From assembly GCA_964449385.1 (NCBI GenBank), contig CAYUYO010000001.1:36720-100719 (forward strand): a DNA stretch of 64,000 bases. Reading direction: 5' to 3'. How positions within the stretch are numbered: the stretch's first letter is position 1; each line of letters opens with the position of its first letter. A program made the translations under genes and the position numbers. Shown one piece after another: positions 2,701 through 54,165 of the stretch. The notes below the pieces were generated by a model. That model was not told where the DNA came from. It searched no databases and saw nothing but the letters and a program-made list of their open reading frames with translations. Source of the stretch: an uncultured Candidatus Saccharibacteria bacterium (lineage in GTDB: Bacteria > Patescibacteriota > Minisyncoccia > Minisyncoccales > CAYUYO01).

Positions 2701-3957
2701 TTAGTCAAGATTTAGTTTAAGTTTAATTTTTTCAGTATTTTCGGGAATTCTATTAACCCAAAATGGCGAAAATCTAACTAGAGCTTTAGTAATCTGGGGT
2801 AAGTTTTCTAAGAAAATTTGCGTTTCAGTTAATGATTTTTTTCTTAAAGCTTTTTTTAATTCATCCTGATCAATGGCCGAATAAATTTTAGCTTCCATAT
2901 TTAATGAAAGAGAAATTTTCCCTGTTTCCAAATCAATAGTTTTTAAATCATAATTTAATTTCAAACTTTCTTGATAAAGTTCTTCCTCCTTAGAGATTTG
3001 AGAAATTATATATTCTTTAGCAAAGGTTTCAATGTCTTCTGTTTTAAATACCAAAGCAGTTGATTTAGCTTTTACTTGAAAATTAAATTTTTCTAATTCA
3101 TCTTCGGCTTGAGCTGAAGAAAATTTATCTAAAATTTTTGAATCCAAAATTCCTTTTAATAAAATAAAATCTGAAGGAATTTTTTCTTTCAGGGCAATTT
3201 CGTTTTGCTCAAGAGCTCTTTTTTCTAATGTTTCTTGGGCTTGATCTAAATCTTCTTGTGTAACTTTAGAAACTTCCTCTTTAAAACCTCCTGTCATATT
3301 CTGAAAAGACTCACCATAAAATTTGGTATATCTGGCTGTTCCGGCAAATCCAGGAATAGAAAAACTAGAAGCACCTATGTTATATTCCGGACCTGGCTGG
3401 TCAGCTTTTACCGCAATATCAGAATAACCAGGAACTAATTTTCCGCCTTCATAATGTTCACCTGGAATAACAACTTTAACAGGAGTTCTAAATAATTTTC
3501 CATCAGCTGAAACAAAACGGGTTCTGGCTATTAAAATTTGAGAATTAGAAGAATAAACATTATAAACTCGGATTATTCCTTCAGCTTTGTTTTCTTTTAA
3601 GGCCTTACCTGAAGATGAAATTTCTTCGGTAACAGTTTTCTCAATTTCGAAAATCTCTCCAGGAATATTTTTATTTGAAACATCTAATTGATTTATTTCT
3701 TTACTAATAGTAATTTCCGTTTTAAAAGTAGAAACCCTTTTTACCGGCCAAATTTCCACCTCTGCTTTAGATAAAGTGAAATAACAGGAAAGAAAAACTA
3801 AAACTAAAATTAATACAATAAAAACTAAATTCCTCTTTTTTTTAGAAAAACAAGTGATATTTTTATGTTTTTCTGATATTTTTTTCTTCTCTTTTTTAAA
3901 AAGAGGGCCTTTTTTTACTTTTTCTGGCGGTAAAATATCAAATATTTTTTTGGACAT
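2701..3957 (-). CDS. membrane-anchored hypothetical protein (N-terminal TM helix, large extracytoplasmic domain)
   Basis: 418 aa with a Lys-rich N-terminus then a hydrophobic helix LVFIVLILVLVFLSCYF. No recognisable catalytic motif. Inserted inside the ribosomal super-operon. Confidence 0.45.
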   Translation of the reverse strand: MSKKIFDILPPEKVKKGPLFKKEKKKISEKHKNITCFSKKKRNLVFIVLILVLVFLSCYFTLSKAEVEIWPVKRVSTFKTEITISKEINQLDVSNKNIPGEIFEIEKTVTEEISSSGKALKENKAEGIIRVYNVYSSNSQILIARTRFVSADGKLFRTPVKVVIPGEHYEGGKLVPGYSDIAVKADQPGPEYNIGASSFSIPGFAGTARYTKFYGESFQNMTGGFKEEVSKVTQEDLDQAQETLEKRALEQNEIALKEKIPSDFILLKGILDSKILDKFSSAQAEDELEKFNFQVKAKSTALVFKTEDIETFAKEYIISQISKEEELYQESLKLNYDLKTIDLETGKISLSLNMEAKIYSAIDQDELKKALRKKSLTETQIFLENLPQITKALVRFSPFWVNRIPENTEKIKLKLNLD

Positions 3958-3961
3958 GTTT

Positions 3962-5629
3962 TTATCTTAACAAAATAGCTTTAATTCTCCTAATGCCTGC
4001 TCCCGAGGATTCTTCTTTAATAATCTTGAATTTACCTAATTCTGAAGTTCTTCTTACATGAGGTCCAGCACAAATTTCTTTAGAAAAATTACCAATTAGA
4101 TAAACGCTCACTTCTTCGGGATATTTTTCTTTAAAGAAGGCCAAAGCTCCTTTTTTAACTGCTTCTTCGTATTTCATTTCCTCTCTTTTTACTTCTAAAT
4201 CTTCTTTAATTTTCTGATTGACAATTTCTTCAACTTTCTTTAACTGCTCATCACTCATTTTTTGAAAATAAGAAAAGTCAAATCGAAGTCTTTCAGAAGT
4301 AATATCTGAACCCATTTGTTTTACTTTATCTCCTAAAACTTTTCTTAAAGCAGCGTGTAATAAATGAGTTGCAGTATGAAGTTTTGGTGAAAATTTTCCA
4401 CCTCCGCCAAACTTTTTTTCCTTTCCAGCTCGAGAAATTTCCTGATGTTTTTTCTGAGCCTCAAAAAAAGCTTTTTTATCAATCTTTAATCCTTTTTCTT
4501 TAGCAATCTCCTCAATAAGTTCTAAAGGAAATCCATAGCTTTGATAAAGGTCAAACGCCTCATTTCCTTTAATTTCATATTTGAGAGTTTTAGTAATCTT
4601 TCTTATTTTTTTCTCTCCTTTCTCTAAAGTTTTTTCAAATTTTTCCTCTTCGTTTTGAATTATAATTAAAATATCCGCTTCTTTTGATTTGATTTGAGGA
4701 TAAGTATCCTGGTAAATCTCAATAACTTTTTTAGCCATGGGAATTAAAAAATCCGAATCTAATTTTAAGATCCTGCCATAACGAATAGCCCTCCTTAAAA
4801 TCCTTCTTAAAATATAGCCTCTTTCAATATTTGAAGGTAAAATTCCTTCCGAAGCCAAAAAAACTGCCCCTCTAATATGATCAGCGACGATTCTCTTAGC
4901 TTTTTCATTATTGCTCGAGATTTCTTTTATTATAGGTGTAAACAAATCGCTTTCATATACTGAAGATTTTTTCTGACAAATCATAAGTAACCTTTCAAAT
5001 CCCATACCAGTGTCTACTCCTTTTTGTTTCAGCAAACTTAGTTTTCCATTTTCATCTTGATAATATTCATTAAAAACTAAATTCCAAATTTCAGTGTCGC
5101 CAAAATGTATTTCAGTTGTTGGTCCGCAAGGGCCTTCTTTTCCAGTTGGTCCCCAAAAATTATCCTCTTTTCCAAATCTTTTTATTATTTTTTCAGAAAC
5201 ACCCATTTTTTTCCAAATTAAAAAAGATTCTTTATCAAAAGGAACTTCTTTATTTCCCTTAAAAACAGTGAAAAAAACATTTTTTAAGGGTAATTTCAGT
5301 TCCTGGAAAAGAAAGTCATAAGCTAGTTTCATAGCTTCTTCTTTAAAATAATCGTTAAAACTAAAATTTCCCAGCATTTCTAAAAAGGTTAAGTGATTTT
5401 TATCTCCTACTTCTTCAATATCCGAAGTTCTGAAGCATTTCTGACAGGAAACAACTTTGTTTCCATACGGAGATTTCTTATCTAAAAAATATTCTTTAAA
5501 TTGTTGCATTCCAGCTGTTGTAAATAAGCAAGTAGGGTCAGCTGGAATCAACGAAGCAGAGGATACAACTTTATGTCCTCTTTTTTCAAAAAAATCCAAA
5601 AATTTTTTTCTTAATTCTTTTGAAGTCAT
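3962..5629 (-). CDS. alaS: alanine--tRNA ligase, short form (catalytic, tRNA-recognition and editing domains; no C-terminal C-Ala extension)
   Basis: N-terminal class II AlaRS motifs (FTTAGMQQFK, CFRTSDIEEVG) and the editing-domain HxxxH motif (HTATHLLHAALRKVLG). Only 555 aa, against ~870 aa for typical bacterial AlaRS. Confidence 0.8.
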   Translation of the reverse strand: MTSKELRKKFLDFFEKRGHKVVSSASLIPADPTCLFTTAGMQQFKEYFLDKKSPYGNKVVSCQKCFRTSDIEEVGDKNHLTFLEMLGNFSFNDYFKEEAMKLAYDFLFQELKLPLKNVFFTVFKGNKEVPFDKESFLIWKKMGVSEKIIKRFGKEDNFWGPTGKEGPCGPTTEIHFGDTEIWNLVFNEYYQDENGKLSLLKQKGVDTGMGFERLLMICQKKSSVYESDLFTPIIKEISSNNEKAKRIVADHIRGAVFLASEGILPSNIERGYILRRILRRAIRYGRILKLDSDFLIPMAKKVIEIYQDTYPQIKSKEADILIIIQNEEEKFEKTLEKGEKKIRKITKTLKYEIKGNEAFDLYQSYGFPLELIEEIAKEKGLKIDKKAFFEAQKKHQEISRAGKEKKFGGGGKFSPKLHTATHLLHAALRKVLGDKVKQMGSDITSERLRFDFSYFQKMSDEQLKKVEEIVNQKIKEDLEVKREEMKYEEAVKKGALAFFKEKYPEEVSVYLIGNFSKEICAGPHVRRTSELGKFKIIKEESSGAGIRRIKAILLR

Positions 5630-9292: not shown

Positions 9293-10556
9293 ATTCCCGC
9301 ATTTGCAATTGAGCGTTTATTTGCTTCACTGTTTCCAAAATTACAGCAACCACAATTAATAAAGCCGTTCCTCCAATTAAAAAGCTAAAAACCATTACTC
9401 CCGTTATTCCGCCAATAATTGACGGCATAACAGCAATCGTTCCCAAGAAAAGAGCACCGATTAACAAAACTCGATTTAAGATATAATACATGAAATTAGC
9501 CGTGCTTTCTCCCGGCCTGATTCCGGGAATAAATCCACCCATCTTCTTTAAATTAGTAGCAATAGCTTTTGGGTCAAAGGTAACAGCAGTATAAAAATAA
9601 GTAAAAAGAACAACTAATAAAAAATATGAGATTCCGTAAAACCAAGCATTCTCAAATAAATTTCCAATAGTTTGAGCAATATGTCCAATTGTTCCTCCAG
9701 CTCCTCCTAAAAAACCAGCAATCATACCTGGAAAAAGCATAATTGATAAAGCAAAAATTATTGGAATTACTCCAGCTGGGTTAACATTTAATGGTAAATA
9801 AGTGGAAACACCTCCATACATTTTCATTCCCCTTACTCTTTTAGCATAAGAAACAGGGATATTCCTGCGACCTTCATTAATCAAAACTACTCCGAAAATA
9901 ATAAACAAAGCCATGCCGAAAAAGAGTATATAGCTTGGCAGACGAGCCGGATCCCAAGTAACTAACATCTGTCGGACATTATTAGGAAAGTCAGCAATAA
10001 TTCCTGCAAAAATCATAAGAGAAACACCATTGCCAATTCCTTTTTCTGAAATCAGTTCTCCTAACCACATTAAAAATAAAGCTCCGGCAGTAATAGTTAA
10101 AATTGAAACAAGCAAAGCTATTGGCGACAAAACACCAATAGCTCCTTGACGTTGAAATAAACTAAGCATTGCATACCCCTGAAGAGCAGCTAATGGAACA
10201 GCAGCAATTCGGCAATATTGATTGAATTTTTGGCGGCCAGCTTCGCCTTCTTCTTTGTACATTTTTTCCAGTTGAGGAAAAATCATAGTCAATAATTGAA
10301 GAATAATCATAGCTGTAATATATGGACCTAATCCCAACATTACAATAGAAAGGTTATCTAATGCTCCGCCGGTAAACATATTTAAAAGACCAAACATTTG
10401 AAACTGATCAAAAAAACTTCTTAGATTTTCAGCATTAACTCCTGGCATGGGAATATTAGCCATTATGCGAAAAAGAGTAAAAGTACCTAAAACAAATAAT
10501 ATTTTGTTTCTTAAATCTCTGATCTTAAAAATTTGAATGATTTTGTTCAACCACAT
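9279..10556 (-). CDS. secY: preprotein translocase subunit SecY
   Basis: 425 aa polytopic membrane protein following rplO. Confidence 0.9.
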   Translation of the reverse strand: MWLNKIIQIFKIRDLRNKILFVLGTFTLFRIMANIPMPGVNAENLRSFFDQFQMFGLLNMFTGGALDNLSIVMLGLGPYITAMIILQLLTMIFPQLEKMYKEEGEAGRQKFNQYCRIAAVPLAALQGYAMLSLFQRQGAIGVLSPIALLVSILTITAGALFLMWLGELISEKGIGNGVSLMIFAGIIADFPNNVRQMLVTWDPARLPSYILFFGMALFIIFGVVLINEGRRNIPVSYAKRVRGMKMYGGVSTYLPLNVNPAGVIPIIFALSIMLFPGMIAGFLGGAGGTIGHIAQTIGNLFENAWFYGISYFLLVVLFTYFYTAVTFDPKAIATNLKKMGGFIPGIRPGESTANFMYYILNRVLLIGALFLGTIAVMPSIIGGITGVMVFSFLIGGTALLIVVAVILETVKQINAQLQMREYETF

Positions 10557-42769: not shown

Positions 42770-43564
42770 TTATCTTCCCCATTTAAACAAATTTTTAATC
42801 CAGCCGAATAATCCATTGGTGCTTTTCTCTTTGTCTGTTAATTGCTGAAGTCTTTCTTGTTCCTGTTCCATATTCTGAACCTGTTCTTGTATCGTTGTTT
42901 TAATTTCTTCGCCGCAGGTGCATTCTTCTTTCAACTGCTTAAGTTCTTGGATTTTCTGCTGGTTCTGATTTAATTCCTGTTCTATATCTTCAGCAGCGTT
43001 TTTTTCTCCACCCATAAAAAATCTGACAAACGCATTCCTTTCCTGTATTTTTTCCTCAGCTGTTATTGTTGCTTGAACAGAATTGTTGAATTCGCGAGCA
43101 ATTTGAGAAATTTTAGAACCAATGCCCGTCGCTAAATCCTCTAAAGAAAGCAAGACATGTACAGCTTCTCTAACTTTATTTTGATTCTGATACACTTTTT
43201 GCTGAACATTGCTTAATTCCTGCATCTCTTGGGTCATTTCCTGTTTCTTTTGCTGAATCATTTCTTTTACTTCATTCATAGTACGAGCCTTTTGTAGATT
43301 TTCCAAGATAAAGTTTTGCTGGCTAGAATCTTCTTCTTGTTCCTCTTCCCTGGTTTGTGTTTGCTGTTCTGTCTGTATCTGTTGATCTTCACCTTGATTT
43401 TGAGTTTGCTGCTCTGTTTGTGTCTGTTGATTCTGACTTATTTCTTGACCTTTTTTAGAATTTTCTACTATTGTATCAGTATCCTGAGCTACTTTTAGAT
43501 CAGCAGCAACTATCACTGATCCAAATAAAGCAAAAACTAAAAGCGGAATAATTATTTTTTTCAT
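42770..43564 (-). CDS. secreted Gln/Glu-rich coiled-coil protein
   Basis: Signal peptide MKKIIIPLLVFALFGSVIVAA, QQTQTEQQTQNQ repeats, C-terminal CTCGEE. Confidence 0.45.
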   Translation of the reverse strand: MKKIIIPLLVFALFGSVIVAADLKVAQDTDTIVENSKKGQEISQNQQTQTEQQTQNQGEDQQIQTEQQTQTREEEQEEDSSQQNFILENLQKARTMNEVKEMIQQKKQEMTQEMQELSNVQQKVYQNQNKVREAVHVLLSLEDLATGIGSKISQIAREFNNSVQATITAEEKIQERNAFVRFFMGGEKNAAEDIEQELNQNQQKIQELKQLKEECTCGEEIKTTIQEQVQNMEQEQERLQQLTDKEKSTNGLFGWIKNLFKWGR

Positions 43565-43912: not shown

Positions 43913-44034
43913 TTTCGCTTTTGATATAACTAAAACATAGTCGACCTTTTATTTTTTTATTCTACCAAATAATCGCCTTATTGGCGATTTTTTAATACTT
44001 CTCGGTCGCTTGAACCAAGCACTAGCCTGCTCCG

Positions 44035-44061
44035 GCGGTAGGACGATATTAGAACCTGTTT
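44035..44061. repeat. degenerate tRNA-Asn 3'-end-like repeat (copy B)
   Basis: cggtaggacgatattagaacctgttta vs the tRNA-Asn region gggtaggattcgaacctac, and copies at 44913-44936 and 46228-46253. Confidence 0.45.
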
Positions 44062-44193
44062 AATAAAAACTTAAATAAAAAAATCAACTCTCTCAAGTTA
44101 ATTTTTCCCTTTCAGAAACTTCCAAATGTTTTTTGAAAATCTTTGAAAGGGAGGGATGGATGAAGTGTTGGAAGTTCCATCCCTTTTCCAGAC

Positions 44194-44676
44194 CTACCTG
44201 GCTATCGCATTGCCAGGATCATGCGGTCCGTTAGGTTTTTCCTCCTTCTTCTTTTTCTCGGCGGGCGGAGGCGGATCAATCTGTTCAAGATCCTCCTCGT
44301 CGAACTCTTGAACATCAGGAATCTCCCCTTTTCCGTTCATCCACGGCTGAACCCCATACCGGTCGCCTGTGTGCATCTGTTTAACACGTAGCACAGCGAT
44401 ACCTGTCAAACCGGTAAGACGATCTCTCACCTTGACGCCGAGCTTGAAGGCATTAGAGGTTTTGCCTGTCAAGGGCGGGTCTTCTTTGGATGGGGAGATG
44501 ATTTCAAGATTTGGCCCAGCCAAGACCTTGCCGTTGGGTAACTGTCCCTCTTTATCCGCCACGGGTTGAACCGCGTAACGGATACAGTTGTTCATGTGTT
44601 CCACGCGATAAACTGTAACTCCCTCAAAGCCAGTAACCTTATCGCGTACCAAACACCCAAATGGAATAAAATTCAC
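44194..44676 (-). CDS. hypothetical protein with internal tandem duplication, in compositionally foreign (~50% GC) DNA
   Basis: GTG start with strong SD (AGGAGGAAACCGTG). Two ~45-aa repeats: VRDKVTGFEGVTVYRVEHMNNCIRYAVQP and VRDRLTGLTGIAVLRVKQMHTGDRYGVQP. Acidic/Pro-rich tail. Confidence 0.5.
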   Translation of the reverse strand: MNFIPFGCLVRDKVTGFEGVTVYRVEHMNNCIRYAVQPVADKEGQLPNGKVLAGPNLEIISPSKEDPPLTGKTSNAFKLGVKVRDRLTGLTGIAVLRVKQMHTGDRYGVQPWMNGKGEIPDVQEFDEEDLEQIDPPPPAEKKKKEEKPNGPHDPGNAIAR

Positions 44677-44912
44677 GGTTTCCTCCTTTTCTGTATGCTG
44701 TTCTCTTCGCTGATTCTCACAGTCGAAGTGCCTTCATATTTTTCTATACTTCACCTCCTAATTTTCTAATAACATATTATATAAAAAAGTCAAGCCCTGA
44801 TGGCTTGAAATTTGCTCCCCAGTTCAAAGCTTATTATAACTTTGGAGGATTGGAATTATATGAGAATGTTGAAAGAAAAATTGATGGAAATAAAAAATCT
44901 TGATTACGAGAT

Positions 44913-44936
44913 GGTACAATATTAGAACTTGGTTTA
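44913..44936. repeat. degenerate tRNA-Asn 3'-end-like repeat (copy C)
   Basis: ggtacaatattagaacttggttta. Confidence 0.4.
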
Positions 44937-45014
44937 CAAGTAATTTTCCAAATCAACCACTAAATTTTCACTTTTCTGCAAAAGAATTAAAACTTCTTTA
45001 ACTAATTAAAAAAA

Positions 45015-45848
45015 TTAATTAATATTCTGTAATTGTACTTTGACGTATGGCGCTAGGGCAGCGTCCCAGAATTCAAACATCTTTTCATATTCATATTGAC
45101 AGTGCGTTGCCCGTTCTTGGGGCAGACCGTAAGTTCCTACAAAATAATTAAATTTTTGCGGATTGCTGCCGTAAACCCAACATAGAATATTATAATAGCG
45201 CTGTTGGTTCAAAGGATGTTCGTCCCAAAAGGGAGAACCCTCGCCTACCTGCGAGCTTGTAATATAAAAGAAATTTGCTCCGGTAATCGCAGCCTTTGGT
45301 CCGTCTTCGCCCAAACCCGTTAAAATTACGGAGGACAGCTGGTCAGCCACATCTTCCTCTTTCCCGGAATAAGTTAAATTATAGACATTTATAAGACCGT
45401 GCCCTAATTCATGAAAAAAAACAAAATAAGTGGCGCCGCTTACAGCCATATCTACTTCCTCTTTTGTGTTAACAATGTATGAAAAATTTTGAGCAAAACT
45501 TTCCAACAGTTCATCGCAGATGACTATTTCTTTCCCTTGCGAATCATAATAAGCATTAACGAACCCGCATTCCTTTAAAATAATCGGAAAATCCTGCGGC
45601 AATATGAACACTTCATTCAAAAAAACAGCCAAATTTTCAAAGGAATCGGAATTTTTAATAAGTTCATTGTATTGGGTATATTTGGGATTCTGCGTTTCGC
45701 CGTAGACAATTTTAAAATCCCCCCTATCTTCAAAGGCGAGTTTTTTGGATGAGCTAAGCTGGCCGTTTTGTTCTTCAGTTCCTATATAATAAAAAAGTCC
45801 AACCACAAGAATTACAATTGACAAAATAATACCTTTCTTTTTGCTCAT
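45015..45848 (-). CDS. DUF4344-like putative zinc metallopeptidase, membrane-anchored
   Basis: N-terminal TM helix, HELGHGL (HExxH). GC elevated relative to backbone. Confidence 0.5.
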   Translation of the reverse strand: MSKKKGIILSIVILVVGLFYYIGTEEQNGQLSSSKKLAFEDRGDFKIVYGETQNPKYTQYNELIKNSDSFENLAVFLNEVFILPQDFPIILKECGFVNAYYDSQGKEIVICDELLESFAQNFSYIVNTKEEVDMAVSGATYFVFFHELGHGLINVYNLTYSGKEEDVADQLSSVILTGLGEDGPKAAITGANFFYITSSQVGEGSPFWDEHPLNQQRYYNILCWVYGSNPQKFNYFVGTYGLPQERATHCQYEYEKMFEFWDAALAPYVKVQLQNIN

Positions 45849-45925
45849 ATTGCTATATTTTACTGCGTCTATGGGTAAATAACAAGATTATAAAACCAAA
45901 AACGCCTGATTGGCGATTCTAATTT

Positions 45926-46102
45926 TCAGCAATAAATATGCACGGCTATATACATTGCCAGCATTCCCAACAAAAAGCCGCTGAATAATAATTCAAAGCT
46001 TTCTAACTTTATTTCTCCTCCCACGGACCACGCAATATAGTTTATAAGCACAAGGGCGATAATAACGCCGATTACATATACATACAGAGGATATTTTTTC
46101 AT
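45926..46102 (-). CDS. small hydrophobic protein (2 TM)
   Basis: Not in the ORF track. Hand translation: MKKYPLYVYVIGVIIALVLINYIAWSVGGEIKLESFELLFSGFLLGMLAMYIAVHIYC. Confidence 0.3.
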   Translation of the reverse strand: MKKYPLYVYVIGVIIALVLINYIAWSVGGEIKLESFELLFSGFLLGMLAMYIAVHIYC

Positions 46103-46227
46103 AACTTCAGTATAGCAATTTTTACCTCACCCTGCTGCCCACTATTTGTTAAACAAAAACCGCCCCTTGGGCGACTTTTTACTTTCTGAAAATTAATGGC
46201 GAGTTCGAGACCCATCTCCAGTCGTAA

Positions 46228-46253
46228 CGGGAATAGGAATTTAGAACCTGTCC
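46228..46253. repeat. degenerate tRNA-Asn 3'-end-like repeat (copy A), inside a 69-nt element closed by an 8-bp inverted repeat (46195-46202 / 46256-46263)
   Basis: cgggaataggaatttagaacctgtcc, flanked by aatggcga...tcgccatt. Confidence 0.4.
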
Positions 46254-46322
46254 CATCGCCATTTTATGCTTAAAATATGGACTGGAATGGGACGGAAACG
46301 GGTCAGTCTCACAAAAAACGTC

Positions 46323-46397
46323 TGGCTCTGCGGGTAGGATTCGAACCTACAACCTAGTGCTTAACAGGCACCCGCGCTACCATTGCGCCACCGCAGA
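46323..46397 (-). tRNA. tRNA-Asn (anticodon GTT)
   Basis: Hand fold of the minus strand: acceptor TCTGCGG/CCGCAGA, D-arm GCGC-AATGGTA-GCGC, anticodon stem GGTGC/GCACT, loop CTGTTAA, T-arm GTAGG-TTCGAAT-CCTAC, CCA encoded. Confidence 0.8.
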
Positions 46398-46419
46398 ATA
46401 CATTAACTATATACTATTT

Positions 46420-47655
46420 TCAATATCCTTTCAATTTTTTAAGGGAGCGATGTTCTCTGACACGCTCTAATGCTTTAGCTTCAATCTGACGAATTCTCTC
46501 CCTGGTAACTCCGAATACCTGGCCAACCTCTTCTAAAGTATGAGTAACACCATCGTCTAATCCAAATCTCATTTCTAAAATTTTTTGTTCTCGAGGAGTT
46601 AAATCAATTAAAATTTCTTCTAGTCTTTCTCTTAATAAAGTTCTGGCCGCTGTTTTTGACGGAGACGGAACTTTTTCATCTTCAATAAATTCCGACAAAA
46701 CACTGTCTTCTTCATTATCTCCAACCGGCGTTTCCAGAGAAATAGTTTCTTGAGAGATTTTCATAATATGGCGTACTTTATCCACTTCAATTCCCATTTC
46801 AGAAGCAATTTCTTCCGGTAAGGGATCCCTGCCCAAACCCTGTAAAAGTCTTCTCCTTGCTTGGGTATATTTGGAGATAGTTTCCACCATATGAACCGGT
46901 ATTCTAATAGTTCTTGCCTGGTCAGCCAAAGCCCTGGTGATCGCCTGTCTTATCCACCAAGTAGCATAGGTTGAAAATTTATATCCCCTTCTCCAATCAA
47001 ATTTCACTACTGCTCGGAATAATCCTAAATTTCCTTCTTGAATTAAATCAAGCAAGGTTAAATTTGGGCTGCGACCAATATATCTTTTAGCAATAGAAAC
47101 AACTAATCTTAAATTAGCTTTGGCAAGTTTTTTCTTTGCATCTTCGTCCCCTTTTTCAATTCGTTTAGATAACTCTTTTTCCCCTTCTGCAGTCAAAAAA
47201 GAATAAGAACCAATTTCTTTTAAATACATTTGAATCGGGTCAATTTTTGATGCCAAACGTTTTTTAGCTGGTTTAGAAGCATCTAAATCTAGAAATTCCT
47301 TGACTTCTTTCACTTCAATTCCTTTTTTTTCTAATTCATCATATAATTTCTCTAATCCATTAATATCCTTTTCCATTTCAGGGAAAGAGGTTAAAATTTC
47401 CGAAGACGTAATAAAACCACGCTGTCTTCCTTTTTCCATTAATTGCTGAATTTTCTCTTCGGTGAAAATCTTTTTAGATCTGCTAGATACAGTTTTTGCT
47501 TTCTTTTTTGTTTTCTTGATTGCTTTCTTAACTACTTTCTTGGTTATTTTTTTGGTAATCTTCTTAACTGTTTTCTTAGTTGCCTTCTTGACTACTTTTT
47601 TAACTGCTTTTTTGGTCGTTTTCTTTTTTATTTTTTTTGTTTTTTTCTTTTTCAT
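46420..47655 (-). CDS. rpoD: RNA polymerase sigma factor RpoD (sigma-70) with Lys-rich KKxxKK N-terminal repeats
   Basis: Regions 2-4 present ([14 protein letters not shown]...; region 4 [20 protein letters not shown]). N-terminal ~55 aa of (T/V)KK repeats. Confidence 0.9.
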
Positions 47656-50528
47656 CCGATTATTTCTTTAGCTAATTGATTAAAGTCTTGAGTTAATTTT
47701 TCCAGTTTTTTTGAATCTTTCTCGAATTCAGCTTTTTTAATTTCTTTGGAAATTTCATCCAGTTTATTTTTAATTTTCAAGGATTGAAGTTCTGCTAAGC
47801 AATATTTTATTTCAGATTCTACTTCTTTTTCCTCTATATCTTCTATTTCTGCTTTCAGTGAAAGATAATTAAAAAACTCTGAGTCAGGATTTTGATTTTT
47901 TCTTAAACTAATTAAAAATTTCTGAATATCGTCTGGAAAATCAACTAGTTTATCTTTTTCAATAAGATTTATATTTTTAGGAAATTTTATAATTAAAGTA
48001 ACTATTCTTTCTTCTAAAAGTTCTTTTCTCGACTTTATAGGATTCTTGTTTTCAGCAGGAAGAGAAACTATCTCAATATTTTCAATTTTTGTTTTTTTTA
48101 ATTCTTCTTCAACGCTTTCTTCTTTAACTTCTAATTTCTTTGCCAATTCCTGAATCCAAAATGATTGTTCAATTTTATTCGGAATTCTCCTAATAACGGG
48201 CAAAAGGATTTTAGAAATTTCCCTTTTGTCTTCTGGAGTTTTGGAATCTCTACTGGAAAAAGTTGTATCAAAATAAAAATCAAGAATTGACTTTGTTGAT
48301 TTAAGAGCTTCTTTCCAAATATTGGGATCTTTGGCAATGATTTCGGCCGGGTCTTTGCCTTTTGGTAAAAGCACTACTTTTATATTAAACCCTTGAGTCT
48401 GAGCTAGATCAATCCCCTTTTTGGTAGCGGAATCACCGGCAATATCCATATCGAAAGAAGTTAATAAATTACTGGAATATCTTTTCAAAATTTTTAATTG
48501 AAAGGAAGTTAGAGCCGTTCCAGAAACAGCTGCAACATTTTCATTACCTGCTTGGGAAACCATAATAACATCTGTATAACCCTCAACTAAAATACAAGAA
48601 TCTTTTTTTCTAATTTCTATTTTTGCTTTATTCAAACCGTACAAAGTTTGGCTTTTATCATAAAGAAGAGTGTTGGGCGTATTAAGATATTTAGCAGGAT
48701 CATCGGACTTGAATATTCTTCCTCCGAAACCAATAACCTGAGAGTTCAAGTCAAAAATAGGAAAAATAATTCTGCCTCTGAATCTGTCAAAAAAATTTCC
48801 TTTAGCTTTTTCAGATTTAATAGCTAAGCCGGCTTTCTCTATTTCTTCTTTCTGATATCCTTTAGAAATTAAAAAATCAGACAATCCTTGCCAAACATCC
48901 GGCGAATAACCGAGCCTCCACTTCTTAATACTTTCTTCTAAAATCCCTCTCTGTAAAAGATATTCTTTTACTTCTTGGCCTACTTTTGATTCTAACTGCC
49001 TTTCGAAAAATTGAGCTGCCAGTTCGCAAATTTCATATAATCTTTGCCTTTCTGTTTTTAATTCCGGAGATTGTTTTTTTAATTCCACGCCAGCTCTCTG
49101 AGCTAAAATTCTCAAAGCATCGCCGAACTCCACTCCCTCAATTTTCATTACAAATTTAAAAATGTCACCTCCTTCACCGCAGTTCCCCACCACAAAATTA
49201 TTAGCTACATAAGAATGGTCTTTGTCTACGGTTAAATTATAAACGCTACCATTAAACTTCCTTTTCTTAATTTCTTTAACTGGAAAAAGAACGTATAAAA
49301 CATTATTTTTTTTATAAAAATCAGCAAAATGTAATTTAATATTTTCCTGCCAGGAAATTTCAAATGATTTTCTATGATGAACTCCTTTTTTATCAATTTT
49401 TGCTTTATTTGTGATGATTGTCGGTATAATTCCCAATCTTAATAAAATATCTCGTAATTGTTCAGTTAAAACCGGTGAAATAGTACCGATAGATTTGAAA
49501 TACCTTTCTGTTTTTGTCTTAGCTACTCTACCCGTATATCCATCTCCTCTAAAAATCGCCTCTAAAATTATTCTTTGCTTCTTCGGAGGAAGATGTTGAA
49601 AATCAAAAGGGATGTGTTTATTTTCTGCTCCTTTACCGCAAAGGTTTCCAAAAATATTAGCCAAATTAGAGCTATTAGCAACAATGTCTAAGCCCCTATA
49701 CTCTTTTCTCTTTTTACGCCGAATAGTACTCTCTAAATTAAATACATTTTTAAGGAAATTTATAATATCTTTGGCAAAATCTTTTTCATAAGTAGCGATG
49801 CTAAATATGATGTGCCCATAATTATCAACACTACCTTCTGCAATCCAGTATCCTATCAATTTTAAAAAGTCTTCATTCATTTCCACTTTCGTGGGAAATT
49901 TTTTTGATCTTCTGTCATGGTCACTAATCCTACGAGTAAAATAGTCATTCAAATTTATGAACTTTTTATCTTCTTCTTTCGTATCAATAGGAAAGAGCAA
50001 ATAATCATTTATGGAGATATTACCTATTGGAATTTTCTCTATTTTATAATCTAAAAAATATTTTGTAGGACAATTTCGTGAACAACGCCATTGACAAATT
50101 CTTGTTTCCCGATTTTTTTGTCTACAATTTTTTGTTTTTATAGCATACACTTCATGGTCGGCGGTCAAAGAAACCCAATCGCTAGATTTACGTACTCTTA
50201 TGTCTACTATTTCTCCATTGTATGGTCGTTTAAAGGTTTTAATAACTGGCATAAACCTTCCCTGGTGCGTAAGCACTTGCTGACCAATTTGCACATCTTC
50301 AATATTGTGATACCCTCTAAATGTTTTAATTAAAGAACCTGAAGGAAAACAACCACCAAAGCAATGCCAAATTTGCTTTGCTGGAGATATAAAAAAAGAA
50401 GGAGTCTTTTCCGAATGAAAAGGACAAAGAGCCCGATAATTTATTCCGGCTTTTTGCAGTTTGATATAACTACCAATAACTTCAACAATATCCAATCGCG
50501 ATTTAATTTCCTCAACCGGACTTAACAT
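47652..50528 (-). CDS. dnaG: DNA primase DnaG interrupted by an intein
   Basis: Zinc finger [11 protein letters not shown]...HCFG, then intein, then [17 protein letters not shown] domain ([13 protein letters not shown]...DMDIAGD). 958 aa against ~600 aa typical. Confidence 0.85.
49182..50351 (-). mobile_element. intein (~390 aa) with LAGLIDADG homing-endonuclease domain inside the dnaG zinc-finger coding region
   Basis: Block [11 protein letters not shown], block B LTADHEV, LAGLIDADG-like [11 protein letters not shown] and [12 protein letters not shown]-terminal [21 protein letters not shown] followed by +1 Cys. Confidence 0.8.
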
Positions 50529-51580: not shown

Positions 51581-52213
51581 TTACTTGCAGAAGACCAAGA
51601 AATCGGCAGGATCCCAGATAAAGTCAGGATTGTCCCAATCCAAACTGCCGCAGAGCCATAGCTTCGAGGTAAGACACCCCACTAAGAACACGCGCGGGTG
51701 ACCAGCAGAATCGATAATGGGCTCCATCCATATAAGAACCCACTCGTTGTTCGGCTGGTCTTGGCATTGCAGACGCAGTTGAGGACCGACTTCTGGTGGA
51801 CAGAGCTCAAGTCCGAGTTCCTTGGCGCGTTCGTATATCTGGTCGCTCCGGGCACCTTTCTTGAAGCCGAGTTCGGCAAGCGTGACTTTTACAAGATCCA
51901 CCTCGATCGTCTCGGTAGCTACTGTAAAAGCTGGCTTTCCAAGGATGTCGTCGGCCCAGTGGCTGATATCAAATCCGTTGTCCTTCAGGGCTTTGCGGAA
52001 ATCATCAGCGGTCTTGAGGCCGGTGCCAAGGTTGATGGTTTTCCAGATATTGAATTCGGGATCGGGTGAACAAAATGCATTACTGAGAGCTTTCTGCACA
52101 GCCCTGGGGTTTTGAATCCATCTCTGCATCACATCGCCCGAAAGCTCGGGCATGTTCTCGCCGACCACGGCGAGAAATTTGGCAGTCTGCCGATCATAGG
52201 TTTTCGCTGTCAT
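51581..52213 (-). CDS. hypothetical protein in compositionally foreign (~50% GC) cassette
   Basis: Longest ORF of several alternative frames in the GC-rich block; SD AAGGAG upstream of the ATG; no motif recognised. Confidence 0.4.
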   Translation of the reverse strand: MTAKTYDRQTAKFLAVVGENMPELSGDVMQRWIQNPRAVQKALSNAFCSPDPEFNIWKTINLGTGLKTADDFRKALKDNGFDISHWADDILGKPAFTVATETIEVDLVKVTLAELGFKKGARSDQIYERAKELGLELCPPEVGPQLRLQCQDQPNNEWVLIWMEPIIDSAGHPRVFLVGCLTSKLWLCGSLDWDNPDFIWDPADFLVFCK

Positions 52214-52471: not shown

Positions 52472-52525
52472 TAATCGGGTTGCGTCGATAAGAAATTGTC
52501 TTGGCGGGACACTCAGGTTAAGTAT
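52472..52525. repeat. cassette-boundary repeat R1 (taatcggg...cgataagaaattgtcttggcgg + 8-nt variable + ggttaagtat)
   Basis: Matches R2 (53209-53248) and the 3' flank/3' end of tRNA-Ser (54047-54081). Confidence 0.6.
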
Positions 52526-53208: not shown

Positions 53209-53248
53209 CGATAATAAATTGTCTTGGCGGTAGCCATGGGTTAAGTAT
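53209..53248. repeat. cassette-boundary repeat R2 (cgataataaattgtcttggcgg + tagccatg + ggttaagtat)
   Basis: 21/22-nt identity with the R1 core; shares the ggttaagtat tail. Confidence 0.6.
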
Positions 53249-54028: not shown

Positions 54029-54075
54029 AGTTTAGGTCCATTTTACTAATCGGGCCTTCCGATACTAAATATTCT

Positions 54076-54165
<90 letters not shown>

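Follow-up and report, generated by a model that had tools for sequence, protein, structure and literature searches.

Genomes of Patescibacteria (Candidate Phyla Radiation, CPR) have a size of about 1 Mb, and the acquisition of accessory genes by these bacteria is poorly understood. To our knowledge, few mobile elements have been recognised in this group. A 64 kb Patescibacteria segment (the window; overall GC content 0.326) raises the question in a concrete form. Directly behind its tRNA-Asn(GTT) gene, there is a GC-rich islet with three open reading frames (ORFs), and it must be asked how these genes came to lie there. In our reading, which we give a probability of about 60%, site-specific insertions took place repeatedly at the 3' end of tRNA-Asn, and positions 44021-46322 are their fixed remnant, which lacks an integrase. 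That tRNA-Asn is an insertion hotspot in the Patescibacteria clade of the window is the best explanation of the data. Single-gene cassettes that stack behind tRNA-Asn, and similarly behind tRNA-Ser and tRNA-Trp, suggest a concrete route by which accessory genes are acquired.

The locus and its composition

The tRNA-Asn gene was identified by ARAGORN and by Rfam (tRNA, 72.3 bits), and dnaG and rpoD are found directly upstream of it. The linkage between rpoD and tRNA-Asn is also present in L020, L028, L085 and L189 (L-numbers denote contigs or loci that were fetched for comparison). Among the fetched genomes, the closest relative is a Nealsonbacteria metagenome-assembled genome (MAG).

The GC content is 0.45-0.52 across 44000-44800 and about 0.41-0.44 across 45000-45600 and 46000-46600. 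GC at third codon positions (GC3) was assessed for 83 non-overlapping ORFs as a robust z score, with a median of 0.22 from the 66 ORFs of at least 100 amino acids (aa). The ORF for a 160-aa protein (overall GC 0.507) has a GC3 of 0.53 (z 6.3). The 58-aa ORF follows with 0.42-0.43 (z 4.3), and the ORF coding for a DUF4344 putative metallopeptidase with 0.37 (z 3.1). Only four ORFs of the window have z>3, these three from the islet and a 210-aa ORF of the tRNA-Ser island (GC3 0.60, z 7.7). A 77-aa ORF beyond the islet has an ordinary composition (GC3 0.25). The ORFs of the islet are thus foreign in composition, and the deviation is specific to two tRNA-adjacent regions of the window. An earlier note on this DNA, which was made from the sequence alone, had described an elevated GC content behind tRNA-Asn and an ORF of about 50% GC with a GTG start codon and a Shine-Dalgarno sequence. 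Both descriptions hold, and AAAGGAGGAAACC precedes the GTG.

A family of tRNA-Asn-derived elements

The same note had reported three repeats (A, B and C) on the strand of the tRNA gene, and had interpreted them as degenerate copies of the tRNA 3' end that partition the region. Positions and orientation could be reproduced (Table 1), and the repeats represent the top direct-repeat family of the region. A and B have an exact 11-mer in common (ACAGGTTCTAA), and they are the only places in the window with an exact match to the 10-mer TTAGAACCTG. C is identical to B at 19 of 24 positions.

From the window alone, a resemblance to the tRNA cannot be shown, because the scores from plain alignment are within background. 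The pairwise alignment that had been proposed as a check (local, repeats against the tRNA 3' half) resulted in scores of 11-17, and 53 of 3196 window chunks reach 17. When one mismatch is allowed, the 10-mer is not enriched (7 found, 4.4 expected in the window). Both results would be expected if the resemblance were due to chance, arising from ordinary compositional heterogeneity and AT-rich low-complexity matches. This explanation is contradicted by the profile and comparative results given below and by the recurrent linkage to tRNA-Asn, and also by the GC3 statistics and the clean parallel at tRNA-Ser. We consider it hardly credible.

B belongs to a family of elements of about 45 nucleotides (nt) that is found in at least eight other Patescibacteria contigs. 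The core of B (AAACAGGTTCTAAYATCGTCC) recurs in such contigs, and near-identical elements are present in L111, L099, L190, L114, L115, L173 and L103. B-like copies are located upstream of a homologue of the 160-aa protein in L099 and on both sides of the homologue in L111. Two copies are found in the Nealsonbacteria locus L190 and five in L115. Fourteen B-like elements from nine contigs (the window and eight others) were aligned by MAFFT with four tRNA-Asn 3' ends, which resulted in one gap of 5 nt. Elements and tRNA ends have AGGTTC.AA, TCC.ACC and GGAGC in common, and the alignment extends over the T-loop and the acceptor strand. In the window, B reads AGGTTCtAA[TATCG]TCCTACCgcCGGAGCA, and tRNA-Asn reads AGGTTCGAATCCTACCCGCGGAGCA. 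The consensus of the elements is AGGTTCtAA[YRTCG]TCCnACCnnCGGAGC, with AGGTTCGAATCCTACCCGCGGAGC as its tRNA counterpart.

A profile (R1) was built from 12 B-like elements only, without any tRNA sequence, and was used to scan the window with filters off. B, which is a training sequence, ranks first, and C ranks second (13 bits, E=0.0054; in a search of 539 kb, E=0.045). The third match is the genuine 3' end of tRNA-Asn (46322-46348), with the same 5-nt gap, while A is the fifth (E=2.6). B, C, the tRNA end and A are all on the minus strand within 2.4 kb. In the loci that contain a tRNA-Asn gene (window, L190, L115 and L125), all 11 matches to R1 are downstream of the tRNA and on its strand. Neighbouring elements are often spaced by 0.5-1 kb with one gene between them (8859/9407 in L190, 10567/11156 in L115 and 15161/14675/13654 in L099). 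The element family is homologous to tRNA-Asn 3' ends and has the orientation of the tRNA.

It is only through the profile and the comparative evidence that the tRNA resemblance of A, B and C is significant. On this basis, the repeats can be described as members of a conserved, tRNA-Asn-derived element family that is shared between genomes. Of the earlier interpretation, the derivation from tRNA-Asn stands, but the repeats cannot simply be regarded as copies of the resident gene that have decayed. Concerning the partition of the region, B and C are supported as separators, while A is weak on its own. The positional counterpart of A in L190 (TTCGATCCTACCCGCGGAGC) is found about 130 nt behind tRNA-Asn and is a clean displaced fragment. 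A fourth copy (C') has to be added. It was detected when the cassette with the 160-aa gene was aligned with L111; the homology to L111 starts there, matching the upstream B-like element of that contig. The order of the islet is tRNA, A, [58-aa ORF and DUF4344 gene], C, C', [160-aa cassette], B, terminator and promoter.

The 5' half of the B-like elements and their 5-nt insertion are near-invariant, while RpoD differs by 24-32%, which suggests that this half is a constrained, putative binding site. As an alternative, the B-like elements may be cis elements of the host, which serve tRNA-like processing or stability or act as transcription punctuation. The GC-rich genes would then be native genes under unusual constraints, and the link to mobility would be coincidental. 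The location of the elements at gene 3' ends, right before terminators or promoters, is consistent with this, as are the preserved T-loop-like GGTTCnAA and the fixation of the islet in the population. An RNA function is, however, not supported by RNAalifold, which for 12 B-like elements gave a consensus of -1.2 kcal/mol with no conserved hairpin or covariation, nor by Rfam, which gave no match to the elements. There are only three to four copies in 64 kb, all of them behind one tRNA, and the neighbouring genes are GC3 outliers. The reduced synonymous divergence of the DUF4344 gene and the presence of the cassette in many contexts (see below) also argue against host cis elements, which we consider an improbable explanation.

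Several other assignments were attempted. A known RNA family or riboswitch at the repeats or in the cassette leader was rejected, as Rfam searches around A, B, C and the leader (gathering score and E up to 10) returned only tRNA. Single-strand folds of the three repeat regions (Z -2.1, -1.9 and 0.06) were uninformative. That the motif encodes a conserved C-terminal peptide (TGSNIV) was considered and rejected. Of nine distinct instances, only the one at 9407 in L190 falls inside a real ORF, and in eight, the open frame upstream of the motif has 34 codons at most. A comparison by eye with dif/Xer sites and with integron R'/R'' boxes revealed no convincing match. In viral contigs, the B-like element has a single match (L192). 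The contig contains a prophage, but the match belongs to its host-like flank, only 90 nt away from the end, and is uninformative.

Two instances of the element are unusual. In L190, an Imm5-like ORF runs with its last 8 codons into a B-like element (9405-9446). The ORF has 158 aa as compared to 182 aa for its homologue in L191, with differing C-termini. The element appears to have replaced the 3' end of this gene, and the overlap resembles what a recombination site might do. In L099, the 5' part of the tRNA-like repeat (TTTGTGTCGCAGTACATACGACTGAGGAAGGGAAG...) is present at 10032-10172 as a head-to-tail series of three 41-nt copies, with no gene between them. Simple successive integration does not account for such "empty" junctions.

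A portable cassette with a gene for a 160-aa protein

The 160-aa protein is an internal duplication and is modelled as two SH3-like barrels (AlphaFold2, pLDDT 80). It matches phrog_16275 in two stretches (1e-18), and in fold it is most similar to phage proteins that are uncharacterised (E 2e-11, TM 0.75). A Pfam search with the 160-aa and 58-aa ORFs gave no domain above threshold. The protein database contains 46 homologues, and the few with a named source are from Patescibacteria MAGs. A phage origin of the family was considered and was rejected, as no relative is found in IMG/VR, though the distant PHROG and fold matches to phage proteins exist.

The neighbourhood of the 160-aa gene is different in every genome examined. 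The gene exceeds its flanks in GC content in all 27 listed loci, among which are a few near-duplicate contigs. The unit from C' to B is common to the window and L111, while the upstream gene differs. The 3' untranslated region (UTR) of the cassette is 91% identical to that of L111 and is conserved in L103. In the window, L125, L126/L110 and L115, the gene or its homologue follows a tRNA-Asn of the same orientation at a distance of 0.8-4.6 kb, with different intervening genes each time. In L126, a clean copy of the tRNA end and its flank (about 90 nt) separates an SRPBCC-like module from the cassette. The acceptor strand of tRNA-Asn (CCCGCGGAGC) is present in two exact copies ahead of the cassette promoter of L107. 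TTGACA immediately follows the B-like elements in L114 and L115. In L099, a 74-aa ORF and the homologue are located between direct repeats of 64 nt (88% identity), which terminate in GGTTCGAATCCTACCTCCGGA. The 3' part of this repeat matches a real tRNA-Asn, and a tyrosine integrase is encoded 4.4 kb from the bracketed unit. The cassette is portable and is recurrently linked to tRNA-Asn. It has a size of about 1 kb and is found downstream of tRNA-Asn in four independent arrangements.

Portability could also result from RecA-type homologous recombination that is mediated by the flanks. Terminator/promoter modules and tRNA remnants would then serve as portable homology arms, with tRNA-Asn as the conserved left arm, and cassettes that enter the cell as DNA would be added to, or substituted for, those already present. 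Between the window (44000-44822) and L111 (495-1384), the non-coding flanks are 86-91% identical at the nucleotide level, as compared to 75% for the ORF (66% at the protein level). This pattern suggests that the protein is under diversifying selection or that alleles are swapped between flanks that are conserved, and it would fit flank-mediated homologous exchange as well. The duplication in L126, with about 90 nt and a terminator included, points in the same direction, as do the "AAAAATCGCC..GGCG..TTTGGTAGAAT" modules that recur between cassettes and the finding of no integrase in any array. However, one and the same cassette occurs in unrelated neighbourhoods that share no outer flanks. Also, borders are at the tRNA 3' end or at a B-like element and not at variable points within homology. 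Homologous exchange would not account for the near-invariant 5' half of the B-like elements and its 5-nt insertion, given the divergence of RpoD, and the repeats at tRNA-Ser (22 nt only) are short for RecA. We consider homologous exchange to be rather unlikely as the explanation of the islet.

The leader of the cassette has a hairpin (AAGGCACTTCGACTGTGAnAATCAGCGAAGAGAACAGC; 44696-44735, minus strand) that is shared with L111, L099, L101 and L126 and is shortened in L110. The hairpin is not matched by any Rfam family and may represent a cis-regulatory RNA that has not been described.

Horizontal exchange of the DUF4344 gene

The 277-aa ORF is assigned to Pfam PF14247 with 228.5 bits (cut-off 29.6), and its HExxH motif is visible as FFHELGH. 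The closest homologues are 72-83% identical, and their named sources are Nealsonbacteria, Paceibacterota and other Patescibacteria MAGs. The best RpoD match among GTDB representatives is 65% identical, and closer relatives (RpoD 70-76% identical) were reached only via the DUF4344 homologues. In L189 (RpoD 70% identical) and in L190 (76%), the DUF4344 gene is located 1.1-1.5 kb behind the tRNA-Asn downstream of rpoD, with other genes between.

Conservation in place had been named in the earlier note as an observation that would speak against an island, and the synteny in two relatives has this appearance; the reduced synonymous divergence shows, however, that the gene has been exchanged. At fourfold sites, identity to the relatives is 0.57-0.67 for the DUF4344 gene but 0.25-0.39 for rpoD, dnaG and mscS, with about 0.27 being expected by chance. 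A copy in L191, which is in an unrelated context, is equally close at these sites. The GC3 of the gene is 0.33-0.37 in hosts that have a GC3 of 0.22-0.48. As its synonymous divergence is far below that of backbone genes, the DUF4344 gene must have been exchanged horizontally well after the backbones diverged. Its recurrent position therefore argues for site preference and not for inheritance. The 58-aa ORF, which shares the unit with the DUF4344 gene, had no tblastn match outside the species in the fetched loci.

A Q/E-rich protein of 264 aa (42770-43564), encoded just beyond the islet, is related to a 225-aa ORF in L190 (5118-5795; 29% identity, E 1e-13). In L190, this ORF is located between tRNA-Asn and the DUF4344 gene. 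Because of this difference in position, the order of shared genes behind tRNA-Asn is considered to be shuffled between genera.

A parallel at tRNA-Ser and tRNA-Trp

The proposal that the islet mirrors an array behind tRNA-Ser in the same genome is supported. A 22-mer (CCGCCAAGAnAATTTnTTATCG) occurs at the end of tRNA-Ser and twice between the modules of that array (3 found, 0.01 expected). In L011 and L014, which are from the same species, the GC-rich distal 210-aa cassette (51581-52213 in the window) follows tRNA-Trp(CCA) instead (5082-5156 in L011). The homology of these contigs to the window starts inside the 22-nt repeat, at about 52508, within the last 7 nt of tRNA-Trp. As the breakpoint is exactly in the repeat, this is a population-level rearrangement at an att-like site. 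A direct indication that such repeats have recombined recently comes only from this switch between tRNA-Ser and tRNA-Trp.

Proposed mode of insertion

The islet could have been formed from small circular cassettes. Each would contain one or two genes, a promoter and a terminator of its own, and a B-like element of about 45 nt as attP. A tyrosine recombinase that is encoded elsewhere, and thus acts in trans, would recombine such cassettes with the T-loop/acceptor region of the tRNA gene. Each insertion would regenerate the tRNA and displace the earlier 3' end, together with everything behind it, distally. B-like elements would thereby build up as separators, all in the orientation of the tRNA. 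B would be the distal border, with the original terminator and promoter beyond it, and the 5-nt insertion next to the T-loop is predicted to be the region of the crossover.

Several observations weigh against repeated site-specific insertion. Besides the background-level alignment scores reported above, repeat A is not significant on its own, and T-stem complementarity is lost in the B-like elements. Unless they bind a protein, there would be no explanation for the conservation of these elements across genera. The duplication in L126 extends about 75 nt past the tRNA and exceeds the length of a simple crossover core. The higher conservation of flanks than of the ORF and the absence of the 160-aa family from IMG/VR belong here as well. 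A tblastn search with the L099 integrase found no match in the window. Over all fetched loci, it matched only L099/L100 among those from Patescibacteria. There is no tyrosine recombinase in the fetched flanks of L115, L190, L125 and L126, and the Pfam search with the three islet ORFs revealed no recombinase domain. Neither an empty site nor a polymorphism was detected, as the islet is present in the six same-species contigs that were aligned (at least 99.8% identical) and in every longer contig that was returned. The tRNA-Asn locus thus has no sign of current activity. As neither an integrase nor an empty site or polymorphism was found, we only infer the mechanism, including the circular intermediate, the recombinase and its action in trans, the position of the crossover and the order of the insertions. 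A recurring mechanism that adds cargo of one or two genes at tRNA 3' ends, as had been suggested in the earlier note, is supported to this extent by the composition, the profile, the recurrent linkage and the tRNA-Ser parallel.

It is tempting to go a step further and to assume an integron-like capture system in this clade. A chromosomal tyrosine recombinase acting in trans would insert, excise and shuffle single-gene cassettes at the 3' end of tRNA-Asn, which would correspond to attI, while the B-like element would correspond to attC. We consider this extension to be doubtful. If true, it would provide tiny genomes with a dedicated, renewable slot for accessory genes.

Comparison with known systems

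In integron arrays, the platform consists of intI, attI and Pc, the attC sites are imperfect palindromes and the cassettes are promoterless. The arrays described here resemble them in having mostly single-gene units of 0.5-1 kb in one orientation, each ending in a short conserved element that is similar to a recombination site, and in having no recombinase within the cassettes. In contrast to integrons, the window has no intI/attI platform (there is no tyrosine recombinase in 64 kb), and the anchor is a tRNA gene. The B-like elements lack an attC-type palindrome, and the cassettes carry their own promoters and terminators (a -35 box of the TTGAC type and a conserved leader).

Cis-mobilisable elements (CIMEs) are integrase-less, att-flanked elements that are mobilised in trans, as in the accretion-mobilisation of streptococcal integrative and conjugative elements (ICEs). 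Similarities are the att-like flanks, the absence of recombination genes and the tandem arrangement at a conserved site. The units of the islet are, however, much smaller and from another phylum, and no cognate ICE or integrase was identified.

Williams 2002 is reportedly also associated with the Islander paradigm of islands that are integrated into tRNA genes (tDNAs). For tDNA islands, a regenerated tDNA and a displaced fragment, tandem arrays included, are the established paradigm, and Islander requires a length of at least 2 kb and an integrase (PMC4383910; Hudson, Lau and Williams 2015). The islet has an intact tRNA-Asn at one end and the displaced fragment B, in direct orientation, at the other. 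Co-oriented fragments from T-loop to acceptor are also found at the internal junctions. As in tDNA islands, the cargo is foreign in composition and the same tRNA is reused. The total length of 2.3 kb is sufficient, even though the modules have only 0.1-1.3 kb. Unlike such islands, the islet has no on-board integrase, and no active form was seen. Also, its fragments represent a conserved inter-genomic element with a 5-nt insertion and are not copies of the resident tRNA.

Additive islands that are seeded by tRNAs (tycheposons) have been described for the streamlined genomes of Prochlorococcus (Hackl et al., bioRxiv 10.1101/2020.12.28.424599). Here too, the host is streamlined, a tRNA is the seed, degenerate elements and partial tRNAs accumulate behind it, the cargo relates to niche or defence and rearrangements are confined to the islands. 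Behind rpoD and tRNA-Asn, the gene content varies among the window, L189, L190, L125, L126 and L115, and partial tRNAs are present. Differences are the size, with the arrays being about ten times smaller, and the hallmark module for recombinase and replication, which is absent from the arrays examined (window, L115 and L190). Only L099 has a tyrosine recombinase nearby.

The islet differs from known tRNA islands in its scale (0.5-1.3 kb, mostly single genes), in the absence of an on-board recombinase and in having a pseudo-tRNA separator that is shared across genera. Being conserved, the tRNA-derived element can be searched for genome-wide. If it is a recombination site, the cassettes would represent a system between classical tRNA islands and integrons, and the element would offer a practical means to mark the flexible genes of CPR bacteria that are uncultured. 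Otherwise, the islet is a clear small-scale example of the tRNA-seeded additive islands that are known from other streamlined genomes.

Features of the islet

The features are listed in Table 1 in the order in which they follow the tRNA gene on the minus strand. The "AAAAATCGCCAATnAGGCG..TTTGGTAGAATA" module, which is found at 43945-43996, also follows B-like elements in L190.

Table 1. Features of the islet behind tRNA-Asn and att-like repeats of the tRNA-Ser array (positions in the window).
Feature	Position	Strand	Remark
tRNA-Asn(GTT)	46323-46397	-	islet anchor (attB/attL side), directly downstream of dnaG-rpoD
repeat A, most degenerate pseudo-tRNA 3' end copy	46228-46253	-	70 nt behind the tRNA, terminator next
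intrinsic terminator between A and 58-aa ORF	46154-46183	-	hairpin and T-run, repeat family D2
58-aa ORF, hydrophobic (small membrane protein, judged by eye)	45926-46102	-	from ORF list
terminator and promoter/leader upstream of DUF4344 gene, travelling with the gene	45849-45925	-	about 85% identical to L190 (by eye)
DUF4344 putative metallopeptidase, FFHELGH motif	45015-45848	-	Pfam PF14247, 1.1e-67
repeat C, degenerate B-like element, closes the DUF4344 unit	44910-44937	-	match to profile R1
C', very degenerate B-like copy ending in tRNA-end remnant GGGGAGCA	44813-44845	-	left border of 160-aa cassette
cassette promoter (TTGACT), 5' leader with hairpin (44696-44735) and Shine-Dalgarno sequence	44677-44812	-	86% identical to L111
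160-aa cargo gene, tandem SH3-like barrels, phage-related	44194-44676	-	phrog_16275, 1e-18; AlphaFold2 model
cassette 3' UTR with long hairpin (44106-44152) and own terminator (about 44077-44099)	44066-44193	-	inverted repeat I5
repeat B, best-preserved pseudo-tRNA-Asn 3' end, distal islet border	44021-44065	-	alignment to tRNA-Asn
terminator and TGGTAGAAT promoter, presumed original tRNA-Asn flank	43945-43996	-	backbone composition resumes
22-nt att-like repeats of the tRNA-Ser array	52486-52507, 53209-53230, 54060-54081		flank HEPN module and HNH module

Further observations at tRNA-Asn and dnaG

The tRNA-Asn gene of Nealsonbacteria RBG_13_42_11 (L190, 4636-4895) is interrupted in the anticodon loop by a group I intron (4652-4848; RF00028, 57.3 bits). 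Split tRNA-Asn genes that were missed by ARAGORN are also found in L115 (about 3196-3462) and L110 (1-123). For the species of the window, all Logan unitigs are interrupted within the anticodon loop of tRNA-Asn, at about 46360-46365. The DnaG protein of the window (47652-50528) contains an intein with a LAGLIDADG homing-endonuclease domain and has a length of 958 aa, as compared to 597 aa in L189.

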